A stretch of DNA of 64,000 nt from Promethearchaeota archaeon (GTDB taxonomy: Archaea; Asgardarchaeota; Lokiarchaeia; Sigyniarchaeales; SOKP01), in the NCBI GenBank assembly GCA_030603385.1, contig JAUVXW010000004.1:93088-157087 (forward strand). The letters run 5' to 3'. Of this stretch, positions 27,467-53,037 are shown piece after piece (within the stretch, counting starts at the first letter, position 1; every line of letters begins with the position of its first letter). A program made the translations under genes and the position numbers. The notes beneath the pieces were generated by a model, which was not told the DNA's origin, did no database searches, and worked only from the letters and a program-made list of their open reading frames with translations.

Positions 27467-27907
27467 ATAGAGTATAATATGGAGATCATAACCCTATTAC
27501 TAACAGACTGTCGAGATATATACGATTAGATAAAATTCGCAAAAATCTTGAATCTAAATAAGGAACAAGTTTTATTTTTAAATAATATTTTAAGTAATAT
27601 AAAAAAAAATAGTAGTATAGGATATTCGTTAATAAGACTTGATATTTTGGAAGTACAATCGAAAAGAAAATGAGAAATATTATAAGAAAAATTTAAATAT
27701 AGAAATTTTTTTTTTGAGATAAAGCCTATTGTAATCATTTTCTTAGTTTGGAATTTTGTCGTTTATTTTTTTGTATTTTTTTCCCCATAAAATTAAGTAT
27801 GGGCAAAAATCTTTAAATATGTGGAAGATAATTATCTATATAACAAACTCTTGAAAAATAACAAAATTTAATAAAATAATAAAAAATTATTAGTGGAGGA
27901 AAAAAAA

Positions 27908-28186
27908 ATGGCAGGTTCTGAATATATTAGTTGGAGTCCTATTAGGCGCCTTATGAAACTATAATAATCAACTCGATTATTTCTTCAAAATAATGGCGCT
28001 TTAATCGTTGCTCGTGATGCAGTTAACGAGCTCGTTGAATGGATGGGTAGCTCCGCTGAGAAACTTACTAAAAGTGCTTTAACTTTAACTAAACACTCTA
28101 AAAGAAAGAAAATCACGAGCTTCCTTTAGAATTCCTAAAAAAACGTGAAAAATGACATTCTTTTAGCGATTAAATACTTCAAATAA
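27908..28186 (+). CDS. Archaeal histone, 72 aa, three exons (27908-27959, 27990-28119, 28150-28186)
   Basis: Spliced product MAGSEYISWSPIRRLMKHNGALIVARDAVNELVEWMGSSAEKLTKSALTLTKHSKRKKITRNDILLAIKYFK has histone-fold motifs (PIRRLMK; KHSKRKKITRND). GTGGAGG upstream and T-run downstream. Missed by the ORF track because both inserts contain stops. Confidence 0.92.
27960..27989 (+). other. BHB-type mRNA intron 1 of the histone gene (30 nt)
   Basis: Central helix UGAA/UUCA, bulges AC|U and AA|A, exon helix AGGCGCC..UUA/UAA..GGCGCUU. Removal gives AAA CAT AAT. Confidence 0.88.
28120..28149 (+). other. BHB-type mRNA intron 2 of the histone gene (30 nt)
   Basis: Central helix CACG/CGUG, bulges AG|C and AA|A, intron stem UUUAG/CUAAA. 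Removal gives ACG AGA AAT GAC. Confidence 0.88.
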
Positions 28187-28211
28187 GTTAAAGTGAACTT
28201 AAAATTATAAA

Positions 28212-28223
28212 TCTTTTTTTTTT
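28212..28223 (+). terminator. Oligo-T terminator after the histone gene
   Basis: TCTTTTTTTTTT about 25 nt past the stop. Confidence 0.5.
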
Positions 28224-28456
28224 ATTATTATTATTATCTTATCGATAAAATTCAAGTTAAATGTTCCTTTAAAGGCTCTGCATGACAAAACACAGGGCAA
28301 CCATGAGGAAAAGTTTAACAACCATACTTATAGTCTAATTCTCTAATAAAATAGCTTCTTGGATAGGATAAAGAGAGCAGATTGAGTACGTTAGAAACGA
28401 ATCAGAAACACACTTTCAAATGATATACAATAAATAATAGTCTTTTAAAGATAGAC

Positions 28457-28714
28457 TTAATGCTTTTGGAAGCTGGGGGATTTTAGATCAATTATTCGAT
28501 GTTTGCTTGGGTTAAATATCCATTCGTTTTTACATTTTTTAGAACAGAAATAGTGCTTTGGAATTTTTTGAGTGATATTTATAAATACAAATTTATAAGG
28601 CCTATCATAATTACTCTGATACTGTTTTACAGGTTTTCCACACAATTCACAATTTTTTTTCAAGATGATCATACTTTCATTTATTTCTTCTGCGGAATCT
28701 TTAAAAAATTTCAT
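28457..28714 (-). CDS. Small TRASH/zinc-finger-like protein
   Basis: CELCGK...YFCSKKC. Confidence 0.6.
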   Translation of the reverse strand: MKFFKDSAEEINESMIILKKNCELCGKPVKQYQSNYDRPYKFVFINITQKIPKHYFCSKKCKNEWIFNPSKHRIIDLKSPSFQKH

Positions 28715-28854
28715 TTTTTTTCTTTTTTCGCATTTTACAATTTTAGCATCTATTACTTTAACTAATATAATAGTTTGCCTATAAAATTATTGTTTATATT
28801 TATTATAGTAAGATGAAATGAAAAAATAGCAATATATGACGAAAGCTAAAAGTT

Positions 28855-30213
28855 TTAACCTAGATTGATACGACCAATTGCCCTAAAAGATAGATTCTTA
28901 TTGAATATTTCATAATCGTAGATTCTTCTTCCATCTACAAGATTAGGAGTTTTCATGTATTTTTTAAAGTCATCTGGAGTTAATTTTTTAAATTCATCCC
29001 ATTCTGTTATTATTAAGGCACATTCAGAATTTTTTAAGGCGTCTTCAACTGAATTAGCATATTTTATCTTATCTCCTAATTCTATTTCTGCTGTTTCATT
29101 AGCTTTAGGATCATAACCTTCTATATTTGTTACGCCCCTTTTTATTAGTTCATTAATAACTCTAATACTAGCTGCTTCTCGCATATCGTCTGTACCTGGC
29201 TTGAAAGCAAGCCCTAATAAAGTGACTTTTTTACCAGCTAATTTTCCTGTCAATTGTTCAGCAAGATTAACAATATGAATTGCTTGGTCATCATTTATAC
29301 CCAAAACTGCTTCTAATAACCTAGAGGTATACCCTTTAGATTTTGACCAAGCCTTTATAGCGTTCACATCTTTATGGAAACAGGATCCACCAAAACCAAC
29401 TCCTGCTCCTAAAAATCTATGGTTCAATCGATAATCTAGACCCACCCCTTTCATGACCTGAACGATATCAACATTTGGCACCAATTCAGCGAAATTGGCA
29501 AATTCATTTGCATAACTAATCTTAGTTGACAGTAGGCAATTATTTCCATACTTTACTAACTCAGCACTTTCTAAATTCATCCTTAAAATTGGACAATTTT
29601 CTAAATGATCTCCATAAAAATATTCATAAAATTCTTGAAGCATCGCACCACTTTTCTCATCAAACTCTCCAATTACAATTCTATCTGGATGCAAAGTGTC
29701 TTCAATAGAACGACCTTCAGCTAAAAATTCAGGCTGCATGCACAGTCCATAATCTTTTCCTGGTTCTTTACGTGATACTTCATTTATAATCTTAGATACC
29801 AAATTTCGAGTAGTCCCGGGTACTACAGTCGATCTTACAACAATTAGATGATAATTCTCTTTTTTCTTCAATGCCTCTCCAATTTCTCTAGCTGTACTCT
29901 CTATAAAACCTAAATCAATACTTTTATCTTCTCTCATAGGTGTTCCTTGAGTGATCATCGAAATATCTGTTTCTAATACCGCCTTGACGGGATTAGTTAG
30001 GCATTGGAGAAGCTCCGGAACATTTTTTTTAATATTAGTCATCATATCCTGTAATTCCGCTTCAAAAAATGGAGCCTTTCCATCATTAATTATCGCCGCT
30101 TTTTTTTCATTATGTGTGGATGCTAATACTTTTATATTTTTCTCAGCGAAACAAGCAGCAGAGCATAAACCTATAAATCCAGTCCCTAAGATTGAAACTT
30201 TATATTTATACAT
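28855..30213 (-). CDS. UDP-glucose/GDP-mannose 6-dehydrogenase
   Basis: GTGFIG, STVVPGT, PEFLAEG, GFGGSCF and FKPGTDDMRE motifs. Confidence 0.93.
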   Translation of the reverse strand: MYKYKVSILGTGFIGLCSAACFAEKNIKVLASTHNEKKAAIINDGKAPFFEAELQDMMTNIKKNVPELLQCLTNPVKAVLETDISMITQGTPMREDKSIDLGFIESTAREIGEALKKKENYHLIVVRSTVVPGTTRNLVSKIINEVSRKEPGKDYGLCMQPEFLAEGRSIEDTLHPDRIVIGEFDEKSGAMLQEFYEYFYGDHLENCPILRMNLESAELVKYGNNCLLSTKISYANEFANFAELVPNVDIVQVMKGVGLDYRLNHRFLGAGVGFGGSCFHKDVNAIKAWSKSKGYTSRLLEAVLGINDDQAIHIVNLAEQLTGKLAGKKVTLLGLAFKPGTDDMREAASIRVINELIKRGVTNIEGYDPKANETAEIELGDKIKYANSVEDALKNSECALIITEWDEFKKLTPDDFKKYMKTPNLVDGRRIYDYEIFNKNLSFRAIGRINLG

Positions 30214-30481
30214 TATAAATCAATATTAGTATTTTGTTTTTAAATAGTTAAATTTTGAAAAATAGTTAAATTTTCTTTTTCAAACTTATATATAGATACT
30301 AAACTAATGAAACTATATCTTTAATTTAAAGTTAAGAAACATACAAATAAATTTATAATTTAACGAATCTAGTATTAAATTTGTGTTCTCTTCCAATGAA
30401 AGTTGGAAGCATGGGAATTCTATGGGTAGGATTTTAAAATTAATTTTTCAATATTAATACAAAATAAGGTTAAACGATAAA

Positions 30482-31768
30482 ATGAAAGATATAAGAAAAG
30501 AATTAAAAATTACGAATGAGGCATTAAAAGCTGTAAATGATTTTCTCTTGGATGAAAAAAATCCATTAATAAATAAACTATTCGAAGTAATCGAAAAATA
30601 CGGTGGAGTCGAAGAAATCAACAAAAAAGCTAAAGAAGAAAGTCAATTAGACAACCTATTAGATAAATTGAAACATAAAAAGCTAGATTATATCCAAGAT
30701 ATTGAATGGTTGATTAAACAAAGAGAAAAAAATGCTTTTATTAGTATACCTGATTATAGAAAAAAAATTCTTGGAGATAAATTATCTGAGATTACATTTG
30801 ATAAGGATTTTGCTGTCACATTAGAGCTTTCAGCATGTCAATATTTTCCATTTTTTATAGATATTGTAAAAGCTGCAATTGAAGATCAGAATTTAATGCC
30901 GAGTAGAATAATCCGCGTTAGAAAAATGAAAGAACAAGAAGAGGATGGCGATTTATTAGCTATGGCAGCTGCGATGCAAATTATAGGAGCGACTTATGTA
31001 GAAACATTAGATACCAAGGGAACGGCTCCTGGCCCTGATGGATTACCGATAAATGTACATCTTGGTGGACCCGAAACCATAACAGGTTATTTTGGAGGAA
31101 TTGGGCAACCTAACGATCTTGCATTAAAGTGGATTGATGAATATCTTTATTATTATACTAATTATGGTATCAAGCAAGTTTTAAATGTTAATCCTGGAAC
31201 CGTCCTTCTTGGATACTTCATGCATAAACTTGGAATAAATAATGAATTCAAAATCTCAGTATATATGGGAAATGATAATCCCTACGCTTGTTTGTGGACT
31301 CTTTTAACAGCAAAATTATTTGCCAGAGAAGATGGAACAAGTTCGTTGATTGGTTTTAATCTTGCTAATTCCGTAAATAATGAAACGATTGAACTCTCTG
31401 CTTATATTAGAAAAGAATTTGATTTTGAAGATGTTGTTAGATTTGAACATCATGTAATTGAGACACAGAAAAGTATTGTACGCCAACCATATGATCGAAG
31501 GGACGAATTAGTGGAGGTTGCTACGAAAGTAAAAAATATCAGTGCTAAACATGAAGGTGGTGATGTAGAAATGGATAAAAACAGAGAATATCCTTCAGAT
31601 ATTTTAGATTATTTTAGAGATAAGCAAGAGATTATTGATTCGGGTCATTGGGAATTTATGCGTAGAAATCACCTTGATAGATATATTGCTGTAAATACTA
31701 CAGCTAAAATATTAACTGAAAATGGCATTGATATTATTGCTGCCCAAAATCTTCATAAATATGAATAA
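30482..31768 (+). CDS. Conserved hypothetical protein, likely an enzyme co-transcribed with dapA-fae
   Basis: 428 aa with conserved-looking ETLDTKGT...NVHLGG..TITGYFGG and SAKHEGG; 22 nt gap to the next gene. Confidence 0.75.
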   Translation: MKDIRKELKITNEALKAVNDFLLDEKNPLINKLFEVIEKYGGVEEINKKAKEESQLDNLLDKLKHKKLDYIQDIEWLIKQREKNAFISIPDYRKKILGDKLSEITFDKDFAVTLELSACQYFPFFIDIVKAAIEDQNLMPSRIIRVRKMKEQEEDGDLLAMAAAMQIIGATYVETLDTKGTAPGPDGLPINVHLGGPETITGYFGGIGQPNDLALKWIDEYLYYYTNYGIKQVLNVNPGTVLLGYFMHKLGINNEFKISVYMGNDNPYACLWTLLTAKLFAREDGTSSLIGFNLANSVNNETIELSAYIRKEFDFEDVVRFEHHVIETQKSIVRQPYDRRDELVEVATKVKNISAKHEGGDVEMDKNREYPSDILDYFRDKQEIIDSGHWEFMRRNHLDRYIAVNTTAKILTENGIDIIAAQNLHKYE

Positions 31769-31790
31769 ATTGAAGTGAGTTGACTAAAAT

Positions 31791-33278
31791 ATGGGAAAAT
31801 TTGATTTTCGACCTAAAGGTGTTATGCCTGCTATGGTAACGCCGTTTAATAAGGATGAATCTATAAATGAAGAGAATTTAAGAAATTTAGTAAATTTTCT
31901 TATCGAACAAGGTGTAACTGGTCTTGTTCCAGTTGGTACTACTGGAGAATTTGTTAATATGACATTCAAGGAGCGTTTAAAAGTTATTGAAATTGTTGTG
32001 GATGAAGTAAATGGCAGAGTTCCAGTGATTGCTGGGACTGGGGAAACAGGTACAAAATTAGTTGTTGATGCTACTAATGCTGCCACTAACATTGGTGCTG
32101 ATGCAGTATTAATAGTCACACCTTATTATTTAAAACCTAAAGCAAAAGGATTATATGATCATTATTATACTATTACGGAAAAAACAGATATTCCAATAGT
32201 TTTATACAACATCCCCCCTTGTACTGGAGTGGAATTGCCATGGACCGTTGTTGAAGATTTAGTTGATATTGAAAATATCGTAGCAATAAAAGATTCGAGT
32301 GGAGATTACAAATATTTTTCGGCATTATTAGAAAAAGTAAGTGATAAGATCTCAGTTTTGATTGGATGGGATGAAAATGTGTTGGGGGCCTTAGCTGGGG
32401 GTGCTGCAGGTTGTATATTGGGATCAGCTAATATTTTTCCTAAAATATGGATTGAAATATATGATCATGTGAAAAATAATCATTTAGAAGAAGCACAGGT
32501 TCTTCAAAAAAAAGTACAAAAGTTAGCAAGACTATTAATAAATTCTGGTGCATTAGGGGTAAAATCATGTTTAAATATGATGAAAATTCCAGTAGGGACT
32601 ACACGTAAACCACTTGTGCTAGGAGACGCACTCTCTTATGAGATTAAAGACGAGTTACGGGTTGAACTTGAAAAATTAGGTTTTATTAAAAAAACAGAAA
32701 TCCAATTTGAATTTGGAGACAAGTCACTTATAAGTCGTTTTTATGCTGTCGGAATTACTCCTCAGAAAATCTCTGATTTCGACTTAAAAGTAGGGGAATC
32801 TCTAGTAGGGGATCGTGCAGAACTTGCTCATATTGACCTTCTAATCGGTAAAAAAAATGGACCTGTTGGTAATGCCTATGCTCAAGCTTTAACTAATCCA
32901 GAAGAAGGACGTGAAGGGCTTCAAGTCATACTTGAACCTAATATGCAAATTAAACCACCGACAATTATGATTCCTACCATTCGTCCAACTTCTCTCCGTC
33001 ATGCTAGTCTTACTTATGGGCCTGCTCAGGCTGCTATTGCTAAAGCTGTTATGCAATGTGTTGAAGATGGAATTCTTCCGAAAGAATTAGCTGAAGAAAT
33101 CGTTCTAATTGTTAATGTTTTTGTTCATCCAAGTGCTAGTGCCAGAAAAAGAGTATTTATTAATAATTATAAGGCAACTCGAAATGCTATCCGAAAAGCA
33201 ATGGAAGGCTTACCAACTGTAGACGATGGAATAGAGAACGCAGAAATTGCACGACATCCTTTTAGGAACGATCCATAA
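31791..33278 (+). CDS. DapA-family class I aldolase fused to a C-terminal formaldehyde-activating enzyme (Fae) domain
   Basis: GTTGE, YNIP and IKDS motifs, then VGESLVG..AHIDLLIG..GPVG..GPAQAAIAKAV..VFVHP..NYKAT. Confidence 0.88.
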   Translation: MGKFDFRPKGVMPAMVTPFNKDESINEENLRNLVNFLIEQGVTGLVPVGTTGEFVNMTFKERLKVIEIVVDEVNGRVPVIAGTGETGTKLVVDATNAATNIGADAVLIVTPYYLKPKAKGLYDHYYTITEKTDIPIVLYNIPPCTGVELPWTVVEDLVDIENIVAIKDSSGDYKYFSALLEKVSDKISVLIGWDENVLGALAGGAAGCILGSANIFPKIWIEIYDHVKNNHLEEAQVLQKKVQKLARLLINSGALGVKSCLNMMKIPVGTTRKPLVLGDALSYEIKDELRVELEKLGFIKKTEIQFEFGDKSLISRFYAVGITPQKISDFDLKVGESLVGDRAELAHIDLLIGKKNGPVGNAYAQALTNPEEGREGLQVILEPNMQIKPPTIMIPTIRPTSLRHASLTYGPAQAAIAKAVMQCVEDGILPKELAEEIVLIVNVFVHPSASARKRVFINNYKATRNAIRKAMEGLPTVDDGIENAEIARHPFRNDP

Positions 33279-33664
33279 ATTCAAATTTTAATTTCTTCTT
33301 ATTTTATGTTTGAATAAAAAATAACGTAATAATTGTAGACTCTATTAAGAAAATTTGGGAAAATATATTAGCACTACATTTGGCTATCGAAAAATATAGA
33401 AAGTATCTGGTACAATTCCTTTAAGTAAGAGCGCAGAAAACATTAAAAAATTTTTATTGAAAGATTAGAACTAATTTTTTGTAAAACTACTTTTTTCTAT
33501 TCATTTATTAGATTTTATAAATTATTAATTGAAATCCTTTAGTATGTTTATTTTTTAAACTCAAACCGCATAAATTTAATACTTCATAACGCTAATATTG
33601 ATAATCTTAAGTATTTCTATAATTATTAGTAAATTCAAATAAATAATTATGAAGATTAACAGAG

Positions 33665-34162
33665 ATGAAAAATGATATGGCAGAGCAAATATTGGAAATA
33701 GAAGTTGGAGCAGAAGCTCCTAATTTTTGTCTTCCAGATAAGGATAATAAAGAAGTATGCTTGAACGATTTTAAAGGAAAATTTGTTGTACTCTACTTTT
33801 ACCCTAAAGATAATACACCGGGATGTACAACCGAAGCAATAGGATTTACAGGAATCTTGCCTGAACTGCAAAAATTAGACACTGTTGTTATTGGCATTAG
33901 TCCGGATAGCCCTGAATCACATGCTAAGTTTATAAAGAAGAAAAACTTGAAAGTTACACTTCTTAGCGATGTTGATAAAAAAGTAATTAAAGAATACGGT
34001 AAATGGGCTAAGAAAAAATTTAGAGGTAAAAAATATATGGGTGTTGTTCGGAGTACATTTTTAATAAATCCTAACGGAAAGATAGTGCATATTTGGCCCA
34101 AAGTTTCTGTCAAGGGGCATCCTGAAGATGTTCAAAATGTTTTAACTGAATTAAGGAAATAG
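33665..34162 (+). CDS. bcp: Peroxiredoxin Bcp
   Basis: YFYPKDNTPGCTTEA motif. Confidence 0.92.
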   Translation: MKNDMAEQILEIEVGAEAPNFCLPDKDNKEVCLNDFKGKFVVLYFYPKDNTPGCTTEAIGFTGILPELQKLDTVVIGISPDSPESHAKFIKKKNLKVTLLSDVDKKVIKEYGKWAKKKFRGKKYMGVVRSTFLINPNGKIVHIWPKVSVKGHPEDVQNVLTELRK

Positions 34163-34176
34163 TACTGTTTTAAATT

Positions 34177-34761
34177 ATGAATGTTAAAGAAGCAATTGAG
34201 AAAAGAAGAGCTTACCGATCTCTTGATCCAATTGAAACAACTGATGAGTTAATTCGAGATCTTGCAGAAATAGTTAAAATTACCCCTTCATGTGTTAATA
34301 AGCAACCTTGGAGATTTATTTTTGTTAAGGATAAAGCACAATTAAACAGATTATTTACGATTGTATCAAAAGGGAATAAATGGGTTGAAAAGACTTCAAT
34401 GATTATTGCTGTATTTAGTAAACCTGAAAATGATTGTATTATTGGAGACCGTCTTTATTATTTATTTGATACTGGAATGGCTACAGCATTTTTGATACTA
34501 CGGGCTACAGAATTAGGCTTAGTTGCACACCCCATTGCAGGCTTTAAAGAACCCCAAGCAAAAGAGATTCTTGAAATTCCTGATGAGATGAGATTAATTA
34601 CTCTTGTTATTATTGGAAAACATTCAAAAGATGTAAATCCTGTTCTATCTAATGCAATGAAATTAGGAGAAAAACAAAGACCTCCTCGAAAACAGTTAGA
34701 AGATTTTATCTTCATAAATAGCTATAATAATAAATTCCATGAAGAAACAGGTAAAAATTAA
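34177..34761 (+). CDS. Nitroreductase family protein
   Basis: RRAYR and PSCVNKQPW motifs. Confidence 0.88.
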
Positions 34762-36848
34762 TGAGTTATAACTTAAAAATGAGTAATAGAAATCATTTAT
34801 CCAATGAAAAAAGCCCTTATTTACAACAACATGCTGAAAATCCTGTTAATTGGTATCCATGGGGAAAAGAGGCTTTTAATAAAGCTCAAGAGGAAGATAA
34901 ACCAATTTTTTTATCAATAGGATACTCAACATGCCATTGGTGCCATGTTATGGCTCATGAATCTTTTGAGGATGACGAAGTCGCTGTATTGATGAATGAA
35001 GCGTTTATATCTATTAAAGTGGATAGGGAAGAGCGCCCAGACATTGATAAAGTTTATATGACAGTATGTCAGACGATGACAGGCTCGGGAGGGTGGCCTT
35101 TAACTATAATAATGACTCCTGAAAAAAAACCATTCTTTGCCGGAACTTATTTTCCAAAGCATACAAGATTTGGACGAATCGGATTAATAGACTTAATTAA
35201 ACGAATCAAAGATCTATGGAATAATCAGAAGAGTGAGTTAGTAAATTCTGCTGATCAAATTACTTACAACTTACAGAATATAGATCAAGAATCACCTGGA
35301 GAGATAATTACCGAAGATACTCTTAGGAAGGCATATCAATTACTCTTAAGACAATATGATGAAACTAATGGTGGTTTTGGTAATCGCCCTAAATTTCCTA
35401 CGCCTCATAACCTTATATTTTTACTTAGGTTTTGGAAACGTACTGGTGAAAAAAAAGCATTAGAAATGGTTGAGAATACACTTCAAGCAATGCGAAAAGG
35501 TGGCATCTATGATCATATTGGTTTTGGCTTTCATCGATATTCAACTGATTCAATTTGGCTTGTCCCTCATTTTGAGAAGATGCTCTATGATCAAGCACTA
35601 ATTGCTATAGCTTATATCGAAACTTATCAAGCTACTAAAAATGAAGAATATAAAAAAATAGCTCAAGAGATACTTACTTACGTCTTAAGAGATATGATAT
35701 CAAAAGAGGGAGGATTTTATTCTGCTGAAGATGCAGATAGTGAAGGAGAAGAAGGAAAATTTTATGTTTGGTCTGAGAAAGAATTAGTAGGTATCCTTGA
35801 TAAGGATGAATTAGATCTTGCCGTTAAAATCTTTAACGTGAAAGAATCTGGTAATTATTTAGAAGAAGCAACCGGTAAAAAAGCAAATAAAAATATCTTA
35901 TATCTTAATAATAATTTAGAAAAGGAAATCCAAGAGAGAATTGAAAGAATTCGGATTAAATTATTTAAAGAAAGAGAAAATCGAATTCATCCTCATAAAG
36001 ACGATAAAATATTAACAGATTGGAATGGATTGATGATCACAGCTTTAGCTAAAGCAGCTAAAGCGTTCCATGATGAGGAATATTTAAATTTTGCTAAGAA
36101 AACAGCTAATTTCATTCTGTCAAATCTTCGTGATTCAAATAAAAAATTATTACACCGATATAAAGAGGGGATTTCAGAAATTAATGGTTATTTGACTGAT
36201 TATGCTTTTTTCATCTGGGGGCTCATTGAATTATATGAAGCTACTTTTGATATTTTTTATTTAAAAACTGCTCTTGAATTACACGAGATTCAAAATAAGG
36301 ATTTTTGGGATAAGATTATCGGTGGTTTTTACTTCACTGCTGATAATAGTGAAAAATTATTAACTAGACAGAAAGAAATTTATGATGGTGCTATTCCATC
36401 TGGAAATTCAATTGCTTTACTTAATCTATTAAGATTAAGTTATTTAACAGGAAATTATAAATTAGAAGAAAAGGCAGATACATTAAATAGAGTTTTTTCT
36501 GAAAAGATAAAAGCTAATCCCTTGGCTTATACACAATTTTTAGTCGCAATTGATTTTGCTATTGGTCCGTCTTATTCATTAGTTATTGGAGGTAATACTG
36601 ATGATAATGATACCACTGAAATGATAGTAGCAATTAATAATTCTTATATTCCAAACAAAGTGTTTATTCATAGAAAGACTGAGCAAGAATTACCAGATAT
36701 AGATACATATTCCAATTTTGTGCAATTTTTCGAGAACCTTGAGGGTAAAGCAACGGCATACGTATGTATTAATAAAACGTGTAAACCTCCTACTCATGAA
36801 ATAAGTAAAATGCTGGAATATCTTAATGGAAACTGGAATGAAAAATAA
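34761..36848 (+). CDS. YyaL/SPATA20-like thioredoxin-domain protein
   Basis: [21 protein letters not shown] and [11 protein letters not shown] motifs. Confidence 0.92.
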
Positions 36849-36918
36849 AAATCATAAAATAGTTTAAACTATTTATTTATTAATCATTAATTCCTTTCTT
36901 AAAAAAATAAAAAGATAT

Positions 36919-37296
36919 CTATGAAGTAGAACTTAGTTTCGACACAATTAAAGCTTCCATTTCATCTAAAGATTTAACTCCGTTCATTTCTTCCTGATTT
37001 ATTAATAAATCAAATGCGTTCCCGTTCTTTAAATAAGCTGAAGGGTAAGTTGCATCAGAGATTTCATACTTTTCTTCAAATTCGTCTTTATGTAAAAATT
37101 CTGCGTCAATATCTAAATTATTAATAAATTTTTTCCAGTCTTTTTTCATACCAAAAGTAGAGAAAGTTTGAGCGCATAAATTACACTGATAAGTGCTTGG
37201 TCGTACTAATTTGTGCCAAAAATCTTTAACTATATTTATTACCCCTGAATCTGCATTATATACAAAAACTAATTTTTTATCATTCATATTAACCAC
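36919..37296 (-). CDS. Conserved hypothetical protein
   Basis: VFVYNADSG...YQCNLC. Confidence 0.7.
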   Translation of the reverse strand: MVNMNDKKLVFVYNADSGVINIVKDFWHKLVRPSTYQCNLCAQTFSTFGMKKDWKKFINNLDIDAEFLHKDEFEEKYEISDATYPSAYLKNGNAFDLLINQEEMNGVKSLDEMEALIVSKLSSTS

Positions 37297-37552
37297 GTAA
37301 GTAATTATTATTTCGCTAATATTAATAGAGTTAGTTAAAAATTTTAATCTACTTCTTATTTAAAATAAATTTATCCTCAATTTAAACAGAAAATTATATG
37401 ATAAATGGAATAAAAGCCGTTAAATCATAAAAAAAAGAGTAAGTAAAGAAATTCTGAAATTTTTAGATTCATATATAATGTCGGTATTTTTTTCATCCGT
37501 TTGAATTTTTAAATAATTATAGATTTATTGTTTTAATCACAAAAATATTAAA

Positions 37553-38410
37553 GTGTACATTATGCAAAGTTCAAAATATAGCATTGAAGATTATCAAAGA
37601 GCTGGTGATGATATGTTTAATAGACTTCATCTAGACTCTTATCCCGTGTCGATAAAGTATATAAAAAATATTGAAGACGATATTCCTGTAGGAGTTAGAA
37701 GACCTATAGATACTAAAGAAAAAATGTCTATTTGTCAAGCATTTACTTATGCACGCAGATTTAGACAGAAGTTATGCATCACAGCAGCGGATAATTTCTG
37801 CACTCCGTCTTCCGTTGCACACGGATGGGTTCCTCTCACGATGGAAGAATTTGTTGAATCTCAAGTTCGTCAAAAATGGTCAAAAGACGCTCAAGCTGAA
37901 AAAAGAAGAGCAGAACATACATACGCACAAAACTTTAAGAATATTATTGAGTTAGCGTATCGTGGTGTAATTGTTTCTCCGTTAACGGAAACCCCCGTTA
38001 TTCCAGATGCCATAATGATTTATTGTAATGGTCCGAAACTAACATACATTATAAATTCGCTAAACTATGAACACAAGCGTAAATATAGAATACAATCAAC
38101 ATTCGAAGGTTTTGGTGAAAGTTGCGCCAAAGGAGGATTAATGCCGTTTATTACCCGAAAATGCCAAATAGTTATTCCAGGCACGGGAGACCGCTCATTT
38201 GCTGGAATTCAAGATCACGAACTAGGAATTGGAATGCCCGCAAGCTATATTTTCTATGTATTAGAGAATTTATTTCAAACGGGGGCAGGGCAGGGTTTAA
38301 AGTTTCCATTAAGGCAATTAATTCCAAAATTGGATGAAAAATTAACTCCTGGGTTCAAATATATGCGAGAAATAATAGATAAAAAATTAAGTGAAATGAA
38401 AAATGAGTAA
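37553..38410 (+). CDS. DUF169 family protein
   Basis: SICQ..ARR and PGTGDR motifs. Confidence 0.8.
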   Translation: MYIMQSSKYSIEDYQRAGDDMFNRLHLDSYPVSIKYIKNIEDDIPVGVRRPIDTKEKMSICQAFTYARRFRQKLCITAADNFCTPSSVAHGWVPLTMEEFVESQVRQKWSKDAQAEKRRAEHTYAQNFKNIIELAYRGVIVSPLTETPVIPDAIMIYCNGPKLTYIINSLNYEHKRKYRIQSTFEGFGESCAKGGLMPFITRKCQIVIPGTGDRSFAGIQDHELGIGMPASYIFYVLENLFQTGAGQGLKFPLRQLIPKLDEKLTPGFKYMREIIDKKLSEMKNE

Positions 38411-38431
38411 AAAATTTAATTTTTAGACACT

Positions 38432-38818
38432 TTAATATAATTCTCTTATTTTTCCCATACGCTTTCGATTAACACCCATATCACTCCACCCCAATCTTGC
38501 TGCTGATCGAAAATGTATAAGCTTGGTTGAATCATCAAAATAAAATTCAACATCATCTACAAATTTGAATGTAGCAGTTCTAAATTCAAAATGCAAATAA
38601 TTTTTTGTTTCGGTAATCATTTTTGTTCTTTTAAATGATGTAATTATATTTTTGATTCTTCCTTTTGCTTCAGCAACTGTTGAGCTATATTGTATAGGTT
38701 CCATCCTATGTTTTTCATCAGTACTTTGAGTGGAAACGCAATTTGGAGATTTTGGGCAAGGATGAAATTTTCCATCAATAATCCCAATTGGTTTTTTAGA
38801 TGTTTTGATATCCATCAC
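38432..38818 (-). CDS. DUF1499 family protein
   Basis: CPKSPNCVS, FVDDVEF and SDMGVNRKR motifs. Confidence 0.88.
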   Translation of the reverse strand: MMDIKTSKKPIGIIDGKFHPCPKSPNCVSTQSTDEKHRMEPIQYSSTVAEAKGRIKNIITSFKRTKMITETKNYLHFEFRTATFKFVDDVEFYFDDSTKLIHFRSAARLGWSDMGVNRKRMGKIRELY

Positions 38819-38939
38819 TTTTATTGCTTTTATTATAGAAGAACTGAATTTAGTTTAAATAAATTAAGATTTTAAGTTAAAAAAAATAAAACTTAGACTT
38901 CTTAAAAAACAAGGTGAAAGCTTCTTTTTTTTTATATTT

Positions 38940-40225
38940 CTAAATACTAAGTATTTCCTTTATCAGTGAAGATATTTTTTGATAGTCAAATACTGATACA
39001 TTTGCTGTTCTCTTGAAAGCCTTTATTTGATCGATGTAATGTTCTTCAAATTGATTTAGAAAATAGATTAATCGTTCTTTTAAACTTTGGTGAGCCGGTT
39101 TGGATAAAAATAAGGCTAATTTAACTTCTTTACCATATGCTGCATGAATGTATAAACCTTTATAACTAATTTCTTTCATGGAAGTAGTTCCACCTATTTC
39201 TGATACAAAAGAATCCATTGCTGATAAAAAACCTGATATTAGTTCTTTATCTACTGGATAATCTTCGCTTGAATGTGAGATCATAGTAACTCCTGAGTCA
39301 GGATCGATTACTAAAAGACTCCTGAAAATATTCTGGAATTTTGGTTTTATAGCTATTGAATGGTCTTCCGTCAATAATATTTCTTTCGGTAAAAGCTCAT
39401 ACATGGAATAAGATTTGGGTTTATACGCTTCACTTTCTTTGAAATAGTAATTAGAAATTTTAGTTAATCGAGATTGAGTTCTAATTGGTTCATGTGGAAG
39501 CTTTTGAATATACTCGTCTCTTAAATTTACATCATGATCTTTAGACTTCTTTCCTTTAAATATTCCGAGTATTTTTTGATGAATCGGGTCGATTACATAA
39601 AACCAGGCTCGCAATTTTTGCATATCCGAAATTAATCTTTCTAAACCTATATTACTGACAGAACTTGGCGTTGTAACGAAAACAGTCCATAAAGCTATTT
39701 TTGATGCTTCACTTATCTTATAAACCGTATCTTTATAATTCTCTTCAGTCATCTCCTCTCCGGTTCTAACAAAAACAGCCTCAGTTCTTAATAATGGTTT
39801 TTTCTTAATTAGATACAGATCTAATCCATAATCTTTGATTGAAGAAGTATTATACACACTAATCCCCCAATCTGCCCCTTGATCTGCGAATATATCTATT
39901 AACTCTTGCTTAGAGATAAAATCAAATCTTGTTAGATAATCGTGCTTCCTATATATGTTAAAGGTGTGCTGTATTTTTTCTGTAAATTAGGATTTTTTTG
40001 ATACTTTCTAAATAAATAGATAGCTATATAATCAAGCAACTCTAATTTTGTTAAGGATTCATCATCGGGAGTAGGAATATCATTCTTGTTCATAAAATCA
40101 TATATTTCTTTAAATCTACTTCTTACTATTAAACAATTTAGACATAAGATTCCAAACTTACCTTCATTTTCTTTTCGAATGGTTTCTAGTATTTTTGTTG
40201 AAGAGGTCAAAGTTTCAGAATTCAT
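38940..40225 (-). pseudogene. Frameshifted gene with a C-terminal longin/roadblock-like domain (ORFs 39932-40225 and 38940-39857)
   Basis: The second frame is open across the first ORF's stop (HDYLTRFDFISKQELIDIFAD). C-terminus has ELISGFLSAMDSFVSEI. Confidence 0.6.
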
Positions 40226-40291
40226 ATTGGTAATTAGATCATTTTGGTTTTAAAATATTGTTATAATAATTCGTAGCTTTGTTCTTCTAAT

Positions 40292-40921
40292 TTATTTTAC
40301 TTTAAAAAGGCGGTAAGCATCTCTAAACCTTAGAAATGCCGTTAGTAATACCAAAGATGAAAAAATCCATAATATAATACCTCTCCATGGGATTAAAATC
40401 GTTGTGAGGAATAAGAATATTAGAGTTTCAGAGCGTTCCATAAGACTGTGATTGTAATAAATAACTTTTTCTTCGGTTTCTAAGTTTTCTTTCTTAACTA
40501 TACCCCCAATTAATAAGAAAATAGTAATACATAACACAATTGCTCCAAGAGAAAAAATACCTGGCCACATTAAAATTAAAGGATCAGTTGAAATTATTGA
40601 TATAATAATAGATACTTCGACAGTTCTATCACTAAAAATATCAAATATCCCCCCAAAAGATGTTGGACCTTCTGATCGTGCTATAGCGCCGTCCAAAACA
40701 TCTAAAAAGAATGAAACACACATTAAAACCGCTGAACATATAATCAATTCTAATTTCCAAATTAGTTTTCCACTTAGGAAAATAAATAAGGCACTTAATA
40801 GACCAGTAATTAATGCTGTAAGAGTAATTTGATTTGCTGAAATCTTTTCTAAAAATAATTTTCTAGCAAATTTCTCAAAGAATTTGTTTAACTTGGTTTT
40901 AGAAAGCCATTTATCAATCAT
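40292..40921 (-). CDS. CDP-alcohol phosphatidyltransferase
   Basis: ANQIT and DVLDGAIAR...GGIFDIFSDR motifs. Confidence 0.9.
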   Translation of the reverse strand: MIDKWLSKTKLNKFFEKFARKLFLEKISANQITLTALITGLLSALFIFLSGKLIWKLELIICSAVLMCVSFFLDVLDGAIARSEGPTSFGGIFDIFSDRTVEVSIIISIISTDPLILMWPGIFSLGAIVLCITIFLLIGGIVKKENLETEEKVIYYNHSLMERSETLIFLFLTTILIPWRGIILWIFSSLVLLTAFLRFRDAYRLFKVK

Positions 40922-40993
40922 AGAGCCAAGTATTTTATATATGGCTTAAAATTTAAAAATTAGGAAAAGGAATAAGAGTTTTAAAAGTTGTCT

Positions 40994-42991
40994 CTATAAT
41001 CTTCTAGTTATAATTGAGTAAATTTGTTCACCAGTAAACCCTTTAATATCAATCGCTGAGCATCTGCAATTGCCCGAACAAGCGCCACATCCTTTACATA
41101 ATGCTTCATTAATTTTAGCTATAAGACCAAATCTTTTATCATCAACAAGTTCAATTGCTCCATATGCACAATTTTCTACACACATTCCACAGCCAATACA
41201 ACGCTCTGGACGAATTACTGCAAAAAATGGTTCAATTTCAACTTCACCTTTAGCCATCAAACCAGCTGCACTTGAAGCTGCTCCCTTAGCTTGAGCAACA
41301 GCATCAGGAATATCTTTTGGGCCTTGAGCAACACCCGCGATGAAGATTCCCTCTGTTAAAGTATCTACAGGTCTTAATTTTGGATGTGCTTCTAAAAAAA
41401 ATCCATCAGCTGATCTTTGAATTCTTAGTAGAGAAGTTATTACATCTGCATCTGCTCGAGGCTCTAAACCACAAGATAAAACAAACAAATCTACTGTTAA
41501 TTCAATTGGTTGTTGAAGTAATGTATCCTCAGCTCTTATTATAATATTGTGATTATCATCTTCGATTACTTCTGCTATTCTACCTCTCACAAAATTGATT
41601 CCGTAGTTTCGCCCTGCAGATTCGTAAAATTCCTCATAACCCTTTCCAAAAGCTCGAATATCCATATAAAAAATATAAATATCTGCATCTGGATGCTTTT
41701 CCTTATATTGCCTTGCTTGCTTAGTTGCATACATACAGCAGACTCTTGAACAATATTGATTTCCTCCTTCTCTGAAATTTCTACTTCCCACACATTGAAG
41801 AAAGGCAATGCTATGGGGTTCTTTAAGATCCGAAGGTCTAACAGGCTTTCCTATAACTGGTCCAAAAGAACTTAATAAACGTTCCATTTGAAATCCAGTA
41901 ATAACATTAGGATACCTTCCATATCCATATTGTTTAAGTTCAGTTGGATCATATAAATCCCACCCGGTTGCTACTATTATTGTGCCTACTTTTACTTTTA
42001 GATATTCAGGTTCATCATCAAATTTAATTGCTTCAGGCTCACAGACATCGATTCGCTCACAAATTCCACATTTGATGCAATTATCCATATCTATTGTAAA
42101 TTGTCCCGGGACCGCTTGGGGAAATGGGACATAAATTGCTTTTCTTGTAGCTAAACCTAATTCAAACTCATTTCCAACAATAATAGGACAAGAATCAATA
42201 CAGATTCCACAAGCAGTACATTTCACTTGATCTACATAATGAGGTTTTTTCAGAATGGTTACATCAAAATTTCCTATATATCCAGTTACTTCTACTACCT
42301 CAGAATAAGTTAAAAGTTCAATATTTTTTTCACGTGATACTTCAGACATTTTAGGAGTAAGGATACAGCTTGAACAGTCCATAGTTGGGAACGTTTTATC
42401 AAGTTGAGCCATATGGCCACCAATAGTTGGTGTTTTTTCAACTAAATACACTTTATAACCCTCTGTAGCAAGATCTAAAGCAGCATTCATCCCTGTAATT
42501 CCTCCTCCGATGATTAAACAAGAGGGTTCTACACTTACCGTTTGTACTTCTAATGGTATTAATTCTCTTGATTTTGCTACAGCCATTCTTATAAGATCTT
42601 TAGCAGTTTCATAAGCTCCTTCTGGCTCTTTCATATGAACCCATGTTGAGTGCTCTCTAATATTCGCCATTTCAAAAAGGAACTGATTTAATCCTGCTTC
42701 TTTACAGGCAATCCTAAAAGTTGGTTCATGCATTCTTGGAGAACATGCTGCAACAATCACTCTATTAACTAATCCCGCCTCAATGTCTTCTTTAATCATT
42801 TTCTGACCTACGTCAGAACAAAAAAACTTATATTCTCTTGCGATTTCGACATTTGGAAGGGTCTTCGCATATTCTACTAAATCTGGAACTGAAACTACAC
42901 CACCAATATTAATTCCGCAGTGACATACATATACTCCTATTCTAGATCTTTCATTCCCTGTGATTTCTATTTCTTTTTTAATTTCTGTCAA
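40994..42991 (-). CDS. hdrA: Heterodisulfide reductase subunit A (Cys form)
   Basis: CHCGINI, NIRE, GGGITG, KTFPTMDC, CSRVCC and ferredoxin motifs. Confidence 0.95.
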   Translation of the reverse strand: MTEIKKEIEITGNERSRIGVYVCHCGINIGGVVSVPDLVEYAKTLPNVEIAREYKFFCSDVGQKMIKEDIEAGLVNRVIVAACSPRMHEPTFRIACKEAGLNQFLFEMANIREHSTWVHMKEPEGAYETAKDLIRMAVAKSRELIPLEVQTVSVEPSCLIIGGGITGMNAALDLATEGYKVYLVEKTPTIGGHMAQLDKTFPTMDCSSCILTPKMSEVSREKNIELLTYSEVVEVTGYIGNFDVTILKKPHYVDQVKCTACGICIDSCPIIVGNEFELGLATRKAIYVPFPQAVPGQFTIDMDNCIKCGICERIDVCEPEAIKFDDEPEYLKVKVGTIIVATGWDLYDPTELKQYGYGRYPNVITGFQMERLLSSFGPVIGKPVRPSDLKEPHSIAFLQCVGSRNFREGGNQYCSRVCCMYATKQARQYKEKHPDADIYIFYMDIRAFGKGYEEFYESAGRNYGINFVRGRIAEVIEDDNHNIIIRAEDTLLQQPIELTVDLFVLSCGLEPRADADVITSLLRIQRSADGFFLEAHPKLRPVDTLTEGIFIAGVAQGPKDIPDAVAQAKGAASSAAGLMAKGEVEIEPFFAVIRPERCIGCGMCVENCAYGAIELVDDKRFGLIAKINEALCKGCGACSGNCRCSAIDIKGFTGEQIYSIITRRL

Positions 42992-43004
42992 TTTATTCTT
43001 TCAC

Positions 43005-43990
43005 CTATATTAATTGTTCTTTAACCATACTTAAGAATGGATCAATAGGAATGAATGGAGAAACACCAGATAATTCATGATTTTTAATTAAACCCAATGA
43101 GTTAGGATCCATCCCAAATGCAACCCCTAAGAGCTGAGTTATATATATTACAGGAATTTTGAATGGTTCACCAATTATATTTCCATAAATATTATTTACC
43201 TCCACTTGACCTAAATCGAGCTGGAGATGACAGAAGGGGCAACAATTAATTATAATATCAACTCCTACATCTCTCATATTAACTAGTTTTTCTCTAGTAA
43301 AATCAGCTGCGACTTCCTTAACAGCTGTTCTAACAGCTCCACCCGCACCGCAACACATATATTTATCTTTATAATCAATGCTTTTAGCACCAGTAATTTC
43401 GACAATTTCATCAAGAAATCTAGGTGCTTCATATTCACCTTGCCAAGGTCGTTTATCACTTGGTTTTACAATATGGCATCCATAATGAACACCTACTTTT
43501 AAATCTGAAAATTTTAACTTTATATGATCTTTTAAATAATCTAGTCCCATATCAAGATATAGGGCTTGAACAATGTGTTTTGGTTCTAGATTCCCTTTAT
43601 ACTCACGATTAATTTTAGCAAGATGTTTATTAACTTCTTTTTTCAATTCGAACTCATGTTCAAGTTCATACCATGCATCTTTTAGAGTTCCATAACAACC
43701 ATTGCAACCAGTAATGGGATTTACTCCTATTTCTTCTGCAATAGAAATATTTCTAGCAGCAATTACGAGCCAAGTTGGAATATGAAATGCTCTAAAAACA
43801 CCTGGTGCAGGACAGCATGAGGCTCCTGGTAAATCTAAAAGCTCAGCACCAAGGTGATCAAAAACACTTCTAATTGATACTTCAATCATAGGATATCTAT
43901 TGGGGATTTTGTCTAGAATCGATTTGATATCTAGTTTACACAGCCCAAAAAGAATCCATATCTCCACTTATAATCATTAGTTATACTCAT
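43005..43990 (-). CDS. hdrB: Heterodisulfide reductase subunit B, two exons (43990-43936, 43906-43005)
   Basis: Spliced N-terminus MSITNDYKWRYGFFLGCVIPNRYPMIE restores the FLGC..PNRYP motif, followed by CCPAPG, CNGC, HYGCH, CCGAGG and CPFC. Confidence 0.92.
43907..43935 (-). other. Relaxed BHB (BHL-type) mRNA intron in hdrB (29 nt)
   Basis: Intron stem CUAGA/UCUAG, central GUGU/ACAA, bulges AA|A and AA|U, exon helix UUGGG/CCCAA. Removal gives TGT GTA ATC CCC. Confidence 0.85.
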
Positions 43991-44470
43991 TTTAATTAAT
44001 TATTCTAGATTAATTACCTTAGACTTTAAAATTAATAGAATATTAAATAATTTCTCTTTATTATTTATACTTATTATGTGGCAAGATTCTAAATTTAAAG
44101 AATAATTCTTTTTTATAATCTTATTTTCTAATTGAAATTTAATAGAGAAAGATTTTTCTTTTAATTAAAATCGAAATTTTTTAAAGTATTTATATAAATT
44201 TTTGTTGGTTAATTCCAAAAAAATAGATTAATATCTCATAAAAAGTCAATTTTAATGGATTGCGTTTAGGAATCTTATCCAAAATCTGAAAATTTGTAAA
44301 ATCCTCTTTTCCACATGGCTCCAACAATTCTTTTTATTATTAATTCAGATTGTTGAGAAATTTCCTTTTTTTTTAATGTGCTAATAATATCGAATATCAT
44401 ATAGGAAGTGCGTTCATCTAACCAAATGGATTCTAAAATTTCTATAAAACAAGAACTCTTATAATCGAAC

Positions 44471-46795: not shown

Positions 46796-46989
46796 TTGAT
46801 TCTTTTGGTTTGATTTTAAAATAGGATTAAATATTTTAAAATTACTTTGAGTGTGAAGGTTTTCAGTATAATTGTTGGATTTTTTTCCAGTATAAAAAGT
46901 GAATTGACTGATGTCTATTTCATCATTCTCTTGTCTCTTCGTTTTAAAAAAAGCAAACAGCTCTTTTTTATTGTCTTTATAATAAAAAA

Positions 46990-47538
46990 ATGAAACAATA
47001 TAAAAAATACAAAAAACCTTCTGATAAAGTAAAAGGAGCCCGAATTTTATTAAATTTAATTAAGTCCGGAATTATAAATGTTAGAACTATCGGTTGTCTT
47101 GCCCAATGGTACAAGATTGAAAGGATTGGGCAAGATATTTTGAACAAACTTCCGACTTCTTTAGGTAAACTCAATAAAAGTACCAATAGATTCGAGTTTA
47201 ATAGCCAAAGACTACCCATAAATAGAGCTAAGGTGTATGTTTGGTATTGCCTAGTTCTTGCAATGATGCCTGTACCTCTTGGTAGCTATACGGCATTTGT
47301 ATTAGATACATTTCCAGGAGATGAGCCTGATAAAGGAAAAACACCTGGCTTGGGTTTTATGAAATTGATCTCTACAAATACGATTTTTGAAGAGTACTGG
47401 AGAAAGTTTATGAAAACTCCTTATTTTTTTTCTTCTGCCTTTGCTCGCTCTTTTTTTAATTTGGCTGCGTTATCTAATAATTTTCTGAATCCAACAGCCT
47501 TCATCAAATTCTGGCACTCCTCTACAGCTTCTGGATAA
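46990..47538 (+). CDS. Hypothetical protein, 3' end overlapping hdrC convergently
   Basis: 182-aa ORF with ATG start, no recognised motif. Confidence 0.45.
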   Translation: MKQYKKYKKPSDKVKGARILLNLIKSGIINVRTIGCLAQWYKIERIGQDILNKLPTSLGKLNKSTNRFEFNSQRLPINRAKVYVWYCLVLAMMPVPLGSYTAFVLDTFPGDEPDKGKTPGLGFMKLISTNTIFEEYWRKFMKTPYFFSSAFARSFFNLAALSNNFLNPTAFIKFWHSSTASG

Positions 47539-48014
47539 GAATGGACTGTTGGGGGTAAAGGTGGTAATCCATAGGATTCTCTTAAATCTCTCCATTTTTT
47601 ATTTGCTTCTCCATTTGCAGGAACGCCATGTCCAGTCGCATAAAAGATATTATTAGCTAACCCGAAATGGCTGTCTAAAATATACCCTTCTTCAACTGCG
47701 ATATTTCTAAGTTTAATAATCATATCAGTGACAGGAATATCTCTCGGACAGCGCTCATAGCAATAATAACAAGTCGAACATAACCAAATATCAATATCCT
47801 GTAGAACAGATTCGTCACCTGTTAAAGCACGGCGGAGAACAGAACGAGTCCTGTATGCCGTACGACGCCCACTTGGGCAACTCCCAGTACAAGTACCACA
47901 ATTTATACATGCTCTTAATTTCTCTAAACCAGCATCAACAAATTTTTGCGCAATTCTTGAACTTGTGGACTTGTAAACTTTTCTTTTAATATACTTTTCT
48001 ACATTATCGCTCAT
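47421..48014 (-). CDS. hdrC: Heterodisulfide reductase subunit C
   Basis: CINCGTCTGSCP, IWLCSTCYYCYERCPR and TGHGVP motifs. Confidence 0.93.
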   Translation of the reverse strand: MSDNVEKYIKRKVYKSTSSRIAQKFVDAGLEKLRACINCGTCTGSCPSGRRTAYRTRSVLRRALTGDESVLQDIDIWLCSTCYYCYERCPRDIPVTDMIIKLRNIAVEEGYILDSHFGLANNIFYATGHGVPANGEANKKWRDLRESYGLPPLPPTVHSYPEAVEECQNLMKAVGFRKLLDNAAKLKKERAKAEEKK

Positions 48015-52951: not shown

Positions 52952-53037
52952 GCCAGCGTATCCGAGTAGTTTAAGGAGGCGGCCTGCAGAGCCGTTGCTT
53001 TTCAGCATCGTGGGTGCAAATCCCACCGCTGGCTCCA
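52952..53037 (+). tRNA. tRNA-Cys(GCA) with encoded CCA and a long variable arm
   Basis: Acceptor GCCAGCG/CGCTGGC, anticodon stem GCGGC/GCCGT with loop CTGCAGA, T-stem GTGGG/CCCAC, U73 discriminator. Confidence 0.9.

Follow-up and report, generated by a model that had tools for sequence, protein, structure and literature searches.

Predicted bulge-helix-bulge mini-introns in the histone and hdrB genes of an Asgard archaeon

Archaeal EndA cuts RNA at bulge-helix-bulge (BHB) motifs, after the second base of each bulge of three nucleotides (nt), and RtcB then joins the exons. This text is about three short inserts that interrupt two protein-coding genes on a 64,000-nt stretch of DNA from a Promethearchaeota archaeon. 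A histone gene is interrupted twice and hdrB once, and the inserts look like introns of this kind. A sequence-only reading of the same stretch, made without database searches, had proposed this.

The window, meaning that whole stretch, covers positions 93088-157087 of contig C36 in genome G000 and has 30% G+C. In what follows, G stands for a genome, C for a contig and L for a locus or stretch of DNA; G000 is the genome studied here. It is a 3.9-Mb draft in 58 contigs, with a completeness of 94% and an estimated contamination of around 7%. Its closest relatives are Promethearchaeia/Promethearchaeota (kingdom Promethearchaeati), which makes it an Asgard archaeon, as had been guessed from the letters.

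Within the archaea, and in the open literature searched, pre-mRNA splicing is confirmed for cbf5 only, and other cases are described as predicted (PMC2738675). The sequence-only reading had called cbf5 the main known archaeal mRNA example. The cbf5 gene of Crenarchaeota (Watanabe 2002; Yoshinari 2006; Yokobori 2009, PMC2738675) resembles the genes described here in several ways. It has a tRNA-type BHB intron in a protein-coding transcript. This intron is removed by a splicing endonuclease and an RNA ligase, as would be expected here too, and there is a link to hetero-oligomeric EndA. Gain and loss among relatives are sporadic, and such an intron is easily taken for a frameshift or a pseudogene. 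As cited in PMC5829648, it was Yoshinari 2006 that tied cbf5 mRNA splicing to the hetero-oligomeric enzyme.

There are also differences. The cbf5 case concerns one gene and one site, in Desulfurococcales and Sulfolobales, with splicing shown experimentally, whereas the present case is built on sequence comparison. Here many unrelated genes are involved, including the histone family (at least five sites), hdrB, uvrB, moxR, RNase HII and others. The hosts belong to an Asgard class, and the inserts share a stereotyped build of about 30 nt with a loop biased to A-N-N-U-C.

The BHB introns of archaeal tRNA and rRNA (Marck & Grosjean 2003; PMC5829648) have the same motif, cut rule and enzymes. In Asgard archaea, tRNA introns have been gained repeatedly in specific lineages, according to a preprint that does not treat mRNA (10.64898/2026.10.13.758758). 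Unlike in tRNA and rRNA, the host is here an mRNA, and the exon strand of the helix is at the same time coding sequence. Removal must therefore be exact to the base if the reading frame is to be kept.

Outside the archaea, HAC1 and XBP1 carry a tiny non-spliceosomal mRNA intron, which is cut by IRE1 and joined by RtcB (in animals) or Trl1. The likeness lies in the protein endonuclease, in the two structured sites, and in the fact that removal changes the frame or the product. HAC1/XBP1 splicing however uses IRE1 and not EndA/TSEN, it relies on two stem-loops instead of a BHB motif, and it is a regulated stress switch.

No report of BHB introns in mRNA was found for Asgard archaea, Lokiarchaeota or Prometheoarchaeum in the open literature, subscription journals being outside the search. 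The mechanism is of a known kind; the scale, the stereotyped 30-nt form and the host lineage are new. For over twenty years cbf5 stood as the single confirmed gene (PMC2738675). If the reading given here is right, tens of introns per genome in housekeeping and energy genes would be a general layer of gene expression and not a curiosity. Annotation pipelines misread such genes. Differences in sites between near-identical genomes would offer a tractable system for the gain and loss of protein-spliced introns near eukaryotes. One could also ask how wide a range of substrates is cut by the (alpha-beta)2 endonuclease, from which eukaryotic TSEN descends.

The three inserts are real and lie where the sequence-only reading had placed them. 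The proposed gene structures are as follows:

27908..27959, plus strand: histone exon 1, M..RRLMK and the first base of a His codon
27960..27989, plus strand: histone intron 1 (site A), 30 nt, phase 1, with an in-frame TAA
27990..28119, plus strand: histone exon 2
28120..28149, plus strand: histone intron 2 (site B), 30 nt, phase 2, with an in-frame TAG
28150..28186, plus strand: histone exon 3, including the stop codon
43936..43990, minus strand: hdrB exon 1, MSITNDYKWRYGFFLGCV and the first base of an Ile codon
43907..43935, minus strand: hdrB intron, 29 nt, phase 1; the frame of exon 1 stops at once (V N stop)
43005..43906, minus strand: hdrB exon 2, including the stop codon

The histone frame opens at ATG 27908, halts after 19 codons and resumes past the first insert. 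It breaks again after 28119, picks up past the second insert and ends at 28186. On the minus strand, hdrB opens at ATG 43990 and runs for 18 codons, after which come the insert and the remainder of the gene, down to 43005. Joined, the exons give a 72-aa histone and a 318-aa HdrB, both free of stops. Current gene calling renders the histone as fragments, and hdrB as an intact open reading frame (ORF) with a false N-terminus.

The spliced histone is 96% identical to an insert-free ortholog (L006), which scores 52.7 bits on NCBIfam archaea_histone, above the cut-off of 50. On its own, histone exon 2 reaches 19 bits on PF00808 (CBFD_NFYB_HMF), under the cut-off of 21.4. The second exon of hdrB passes TIGR03288 (CoB-CoM heterodisulfide reductase subunit B) with 348.5 bits against 345.15, and it contains two CCG domains (PF02754 matched twice); hdrC and hdrA-like genes are present at the locus. 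The TIGR03288 match begins at profile position 11, which means that the beginning of HdrB is to be expected upstream of exon 2. The motif found in exon 1 is conserved in all homologs examined.

Relatives without the inserts show what the joined genes should look like. Around 28 histone orthologs of the same genus lack both inserts, and read RRLMKHNGA and KK(I/V)TR(N/D)DILLAIKYF. For hdrB, 29 insert-free orthologs in the genus read GCVIPNRYP, including the G019 locus, which is 96-97% identical. The insert is also missing from 13 further homologs and from 77 of 80 species-representative loci, where the junction is GC(V/I)(I/A)PNR. The predicted splice products KHNGA, KITRND and GCVIPNRYP equal the insert-free ortholog junctions base for base. 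The cut rule, from which the sequence-only reading had derived in-frame KHNG, ITRND and GCVIPNRYP, is borne out by these orthologs, and the insert boundaries fall exactly at the bulge cut sites. Across the predicted joined junctions the words are ATGAAACATAATGGC, ATCACGAGAAATGAC and TGTGTAATCCCCAAT, and the peptides spanning them would be LMKHNGALIVAR, ITRNDILLAIK and YGFFLGCVIPNR.

All three inserts split a junction codon: C/AU for His, AG/A for Arg and A/UC for Ile, where the slash marks the cut. Since these codons are divided between exons, the conserved His, Arg and Ile can arise only if the exons are joined at the RNA level.

The register for folding the inserts was taken from the pre-tRNA case, in which each strand consists of a flanking helix, a 4-bp central helix and a bulge. 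The common build adds up to 30 nt: 1 in the first bulge, 9 in one strand of the stem, 5 in the loop, 9 in the other stem strand, 4 in the central helix and 2 in the second bulge. In the window this gives:

27954..27957 (exon, plus strand) UGAA with 27984-27987 UUCA: central helix of intron 1, 4 of 4 pairs
27958-27960 AC/U and 27988-27990 AA/A: bulges of intron 1; inner hairpin 7 of 9 pairs
28114..28117 (exon, plus strand) CACG with 28144-28147 CGUG: central helix of intron 2, 4 of 4 pairs
28118-28120 AG/C and 28148-28150 AA/A: bulges of intron 2; inner hairpin 7 of 9 pairs; 1 adjacent outer pair
43938..43941 (exon, minus strand) GUGU with 43909-43912 ACAA: central helix of hdrB, 3 pairs and a G.A
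43935-43937 AA/A and 43906-43908: bulges of hdrB; the 5' one is clean, the 3' site lies within an internal loop

Intron 1 has three adjacent exon-exon pairs on the outside, followed by more past a 1-nt bulge, and the hdrB insert has no adjacent outer helix. The inner hairpin of hdrB has 6 of 9 pairs in strict register; tolerating a single bulged U raises this to 8 of 9 (paired manually). The hdrB motif in G000 is a relaxed (HBh'/BHL-like) form, not a canonical one. Of the architecture that the three inserts had been said to share, the inner hairpin is present in all three, but exon-exon pairing is clear only for intron 1. Similarly, the rule that the 5' bulge starts with A and the intron ends in AA is true of these three, but in a wider set the 5' bulge starts with A in 15 of 19 inserts, and the introns have either AA or AT at their end. 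All 19 have A as the first base of the 3' bulge.

For introns 1 and 2, the sole placement compatible with the protein has a perfect 4-bp helix in register. At random positions in the genome (with a length of 30) such a helix is found in 2.5% of cases, and together with at least 7 of 9 inner pairs in 0.064%. All three regions fold better than their shuffles, with z = -3.9, -2.1 and -2.5.

The histone family of the genus has inserts at no fewer than five distinct sites, all with the 4-bp helix in register:

site A: G000, G019 and contig C6 of G077
site A', 12 nt downstream of A: G061 (L197), contig C12 of G077 (L198) and G076 (L200)
site B: G000, G019, G007 and contig C6 of G077 (L199)
site B', 12-15 nt upstream of B: contig C12 of G077 and G076
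a further histone site: the C6 paralog

G077 has two histone copies with two introns each, at different sites. At site A, the copies of G019 and of contig C6 of G077 differ from G000 only in the loop. Site B of G007 holds an unrelated intron sequence, in which CACG/CGUG is replaced by UACG/CGUA, a compensatory change from C-G to U-A, and all 9 bp of the inner stem are paired. The stems at site A' have diverged between the three genomes, and still 8-9 of 9 positions pair. More generally, the diverged stems at A' and B' keep their pairing, with swaps of G.U and U.G. Comparison of contig C6 of G077 with G000 shows four intron changes, three in a loop or bulge and one from U-A to U-G. The structure of the introns is thus kept by compensatory changes in the diverged copies (sites B, A' and B').

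The hdrB intron is also present in L240, L242 and L084 (the same as L261), with an intact exon 2 that is 78-86% identical to that of G000. The introns differ in a loop base, in the bulged stem base (U, A or C) and in intron base 27. This last base is U in L240 and L242 (ACAU), which gives a full 4-pair helix including a G.U. Changes in the hdrB intron among genomes fall on unpaired positions or restore a pair.

Choosing inserts by their structure and then reporting that structure would be circular, and further inserts were therefore sampled by protein homology alone. For this, 1.6 Mb (48%) of the complete genome of a relative, G006, was compared with G000 in both directions, as ORFs against six-frame DNA. 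Inserts were picked from the protein alignments, and one acidic low-complexity indel was excluded. Some 1085 ortholog-like ORF pairs yielded six inserts specific to G000 and four specific to G006. The former are in moxR (32 nt), a gene on C18 (31 nt), a gene on C10 (30 nt), uvrB (30 nt), the second histone (30 nt) and hdrB (29 nt). The latter are in a gene at 337487 (30 nt), uppS (30 nt), uL11 (28 nt) and a GHMP kinase (31 nt).

In register, the central helix is complete in six of these ten inserts and has 3 of 4 pairs in the remaining ones. The inner stems have 5-9 of 9 pairs, with 8 of the 10 inserts reaching at least 7. For the ten, the helix by itself gives a Poisson-binomial P of 2e-5; adding the requirement of at least 7 of 9 inner pairs lowers it to 9e-15. 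Inserts that are defined by homology in these genomes are therefore BHB-shaped as a class.

From these numbers we estimate that there are some 15-25 such introns per genome, in about 0.5% of genes and mostly at lineage-specific sites. The comparison detects only differences between both genomes, so the estimate adds the two histone introns of the window, an intron in the RNase HII gene of G000 that was found separately in a scan for the loop motif, and sites shared by both genomes. Three introns in 64 kb is a density above average. The expectation of many introns genome-wide is right in that further inserts exist, but the sample suggests tens per genome, not hundreds.

Direct scans were less productive. 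Searching the whole genome for BHB geometry combined with a fusion of ORFs, in two versions, gave about as many real as decoy hits (for example, 749 versus 707 at a length of 30). With at least 60 open codons required on both sides, there were 20 real hits against 11 decoys, the decoys being based on parallel pairing. The signal is drowned by gene boundaries and by stretches that are open in another frame, and such a scan therefore does not yield a list of introns. A scan for the loop motif TC-W-W-N-TCGA, taking the best of 70 registers, gave 19 matches where some 28 are expected by chance; the convincing ones are histone intron 1 and the RNase HII intron only. A covariance model made from 5 in-register sequences gave the other true introns 9-17 bits; background in 15 kb scores as high, and the model is therefore of no use for a whole genome. 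MAFFT aligned 13 inserts of the same length out of register.

In the stretch of G006 that is syntenic with the window, L079:17487-17516 is a 30-nt BHB insert at ...STYSCNL/CAVTF..., and it is absent from G000. The gene that bears it is homologous to a 146-aa ORF of C36, and there is a second copy at position 691070 of G006.

The sequence-only reading had supposed that the organism would use its tRNA splicing machinery, and G000 does encode a heteromeric EndA and an RtcB. There are two genes of about 200 aa with an EndA domain. The alpha form (L001 1453-2049, minus strand) has Tyr, His and Lys catalytic residues (identified by eye), and it matches fused-dimer models in their catalytic half. Its beta paralog (L002 1438-2040, minus strand) is without the His and aligns to the structural half. 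Judged by these alignments, the two are an alpha-beta pair. Asgard EndA is reported to be an (alpha-beta)2 enzyme with an L1 loop, which has been linked to the cleavage of relaxed motifs and a broad range of substrates (PMC5829648). Broad specificity and the L1 loop are assigned from that paper, and not from the sequences of G000.

Only 22 tRNA genes were found in G000, by ARAGORN and the Rfam tRNA model. Many of these are 83-106 nt long, and several have BHB inserts at canonical and non-canonical positions. For example, one contains a BHB insert of 27 nt at a non-canonical place and another contains one of 21 nt at the canonical place (C27:87582-87682 and C34:95147-95239). Many further tRNA genes are probably hidden by introns. 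Few detectable, intron-bearing tRNA genes would fit a cell that relies heavily on the EndA/RtcB pathway. The window itself has a tRNA-Cys (GCA) gene at 52952-53037, which at 83-86 nt is about 10 nt above the usual length; a simple rule found no clean BHB insert in it.

Taken together, the three inserts are very probably BHB introns in protein-coding transcripts, removed by EndA and RtcB. The proposal that this organism splices mRNAs with its tRNA machinery is supported by the junctions, the recurrence of the inserts, the compensatory changes, the enzyme genes and the further inserts, all read from DNA.

The proposed mechanism is as follows. In the pre-mRNA, exon bases -6 to -3 would pair with intron bases 25-28, forming a 4-bp helix between two 3-nt bulges. 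The 9-bp intron hairpin with its 5-nt loop would stack on this helix. An (alpha-beta)2 heterotetrameric EndA would cut after the second base of each bulge, and RtcB would ligate the exons and probably circularise the intron. Only spliced mRNA would then encode the full histone, and an HdrB with N-terminal Y-G-F-F-L-G-C-V-I-P-N-R. The inserts would belong to a genome-wide set of stereotyped mini-introns of 28-32 nt that vary between close relatives. Cleavage, ligation and translation of the spliced product are all predictions of this scheme. The further suggestion of the sequence-only reading, that splicing could gate expression, is speculation.

Some observations weigh against it. The hdrB motif of G000 is relaxed on three counts: the G.A mismatch, the 3' site in an internal loop and the lack of an outer helix. 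The frame of hdrB exon 2 is open through the insert, from GTG 43967 (ORF 43005-43967), and an annotator would for this reason call an intact hdrB with a false N-terminus. In G019, one change in intron 2 breaks a pair of the central helix. Between G000 and G019, 4 of 5 differences in the histone exons alter an amino acid (counted manually). Finally, C10 carries an insert-free histone paralog that is 88% identical, which means that loss of the window copy could be tolerated.

For hdrB alone, there is an alternative without splicing. Translation would start at GTG 43967 in the frame of exon 2, the 29 nt would be coding, and the product would read MEIWILFGLCK... The frame is open in three other insert-bearing genomes as well, and the motif in G000 is relaxed. 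Such a protein would however lack the Y-G-F-F-L-G-C-V before IPNRYP that is kept even in paralogs of 57-61% identity. The first ten positions of the TIGR03288 profile are expected upstream of the match. Exon 1 also keeps its ATG, and differs between genomes by synonymous or conservative changes in its own frame. In L242 it is preceded by a Shine-Dalgarno site (GGAGG-type), and taking the insert out at its boundaries gives the conserved junction with no base too many or too few. We consider this alternative start unlikely.

Another possibility is that the inserts are dead. In that case the histone copy and the hdrB allele would be pseudogenes, or would encode proteins with altered N-termini, and nothing would be spliced. 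The insert-free histone paralog in the same genome, the several hdrB paralogs and the sporadic presence of inserts among relatives are all compatible with this. On the other hand, the exons are intact in every copy that bears an insert, in at least 3-4 lineages per site. Nothing would preserve the exact BHB register at the protein junction or the compensatory changes, and similar inserts are found in uvrB, RNase HII, moxR and uppS; in a relative, uL11 has one too. Decay of this kind is very unlikely.

Translational recoding, in which the ribosome would bypass the insert (as in T4 gene 60) or shift frame over it, could draw on inserts that are short, form hairpins and begin with or contain stop codons. 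No pair of take-off and landing sites would give the conserved His, Arg and Ile from the split codons however, and there are no matching take-off and landing codons in the sequence, making it most improbable. The split codons, the in-frame stops and the size of the inserts together rule out translational bypass, inteins and self-splicing introns. An assembly or sequencing artefact, which a contaminated draft in many contigs might suggest and for which the sequence-only reading had proposed a check, can hardly be the cause, because assemblies independent of this one (G019, G077, G007, L240, L242 and L084) have the inserts at the same sites.

Splicing by EndA and RtcB remains the preferred explanation, and the sequences of the introns also hold hints on how they may have come about. 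The apical 5-nt loop is biased to A-N-N-U-C; in the window the loops are at 27970-27974, 28130-28134 and 43925-43921. Among 15 independent sites, about 9 have a loop that ends in UC, and base composition would lead one to expect about 1 (manual arithmetic). A 12-mer at the tip of the hairpin, ATCAAATCGATT, is common to the hdrB intron (43929-43918, minus strand) and the uL11 intron of G006 (L143:9378-9405). A match of this length is the maximum in 2% of shuffles. This 12-mer excepted, there is no general similarity among the 19 introns: 4 pairs share at least 8 bases, versus 3.9 in shuffles.

Even genomes with 96-97% identity at the locus differ in whether an insert is present, and some sites in the histone family are only 12-15 nt apart. 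G000 and G006 share none of the 10 insert sites found, in a comparison that sees only differences. On the basis of these hints, and of the loop bias and the 12-mer, it is possible, although we hold this tentatively, that there is an actively spreading family of 30-nt mini-introns with an A-N-N-U-C pentaloop, which repeatedly colonises protein and tRNA genes of Promethearchaeia. If so, mRNAs would still be gaining introns in the archaeal lineage that is nearest to eukaryotes.

Upstream of the histone gene there is a putative promoter element:

27806..27819, plus strand: BRE/TATA-like box AAAATCTTTAAATA, 5' of the histone gene

In an alignment, this box is kept upstream of orthologous histone genes at three other loci, and it may act as the promoter.

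The neighbours of hdrB are these:

47421..48014, minus strand: hdrC (TIGR03290, 181 bits)
40994..42991, minus strand: hdrA-like gene, downstream of hdrB (NF040770 HdrA2, E = 1e-268, below the curated cut-off)

In G019 and G002, hdrC abuts hdrB, and only in G000 are the two separated, by 3.4 kb (43991-47420). From hdrB exon 2 onward G000 is 96% identical to G019, and this match ends where the intron lies. Together with the intron, exon 1 and some 50 bases at the start of exon 2 are instead like their counterparts in L240 and L084, which points to acquisition of the intron by recombination with an allele that carried it. Arrival of the intron together with the 3.4-kb stretch, in a swap of the 5' end like that of a homing element, was considered and rejected as a general explanation. 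L240 shares the upstream region of the G000 type, but in L242 hdrC lies directly next to hdrB and the same intron is there, which shows that the intron does not depend on the stretch.

The 3.4-kb stretch holds a 774-aa ORF (44471-46795, minus strand), for which no Pfam or NCBIfam family match was found. Full-length relatives, 29-37% identical, are present in only 4 of 53 genomes of the genus, as befits a sporadic accessory gene. Residues ~510-746 resemble a stand-alone protein of ~245 aa that almost every member of the genus has. By eye, the C-terminus (..GHIDLL..IADYKPDK..) looks like a PD-(D/E)xK nuclease.

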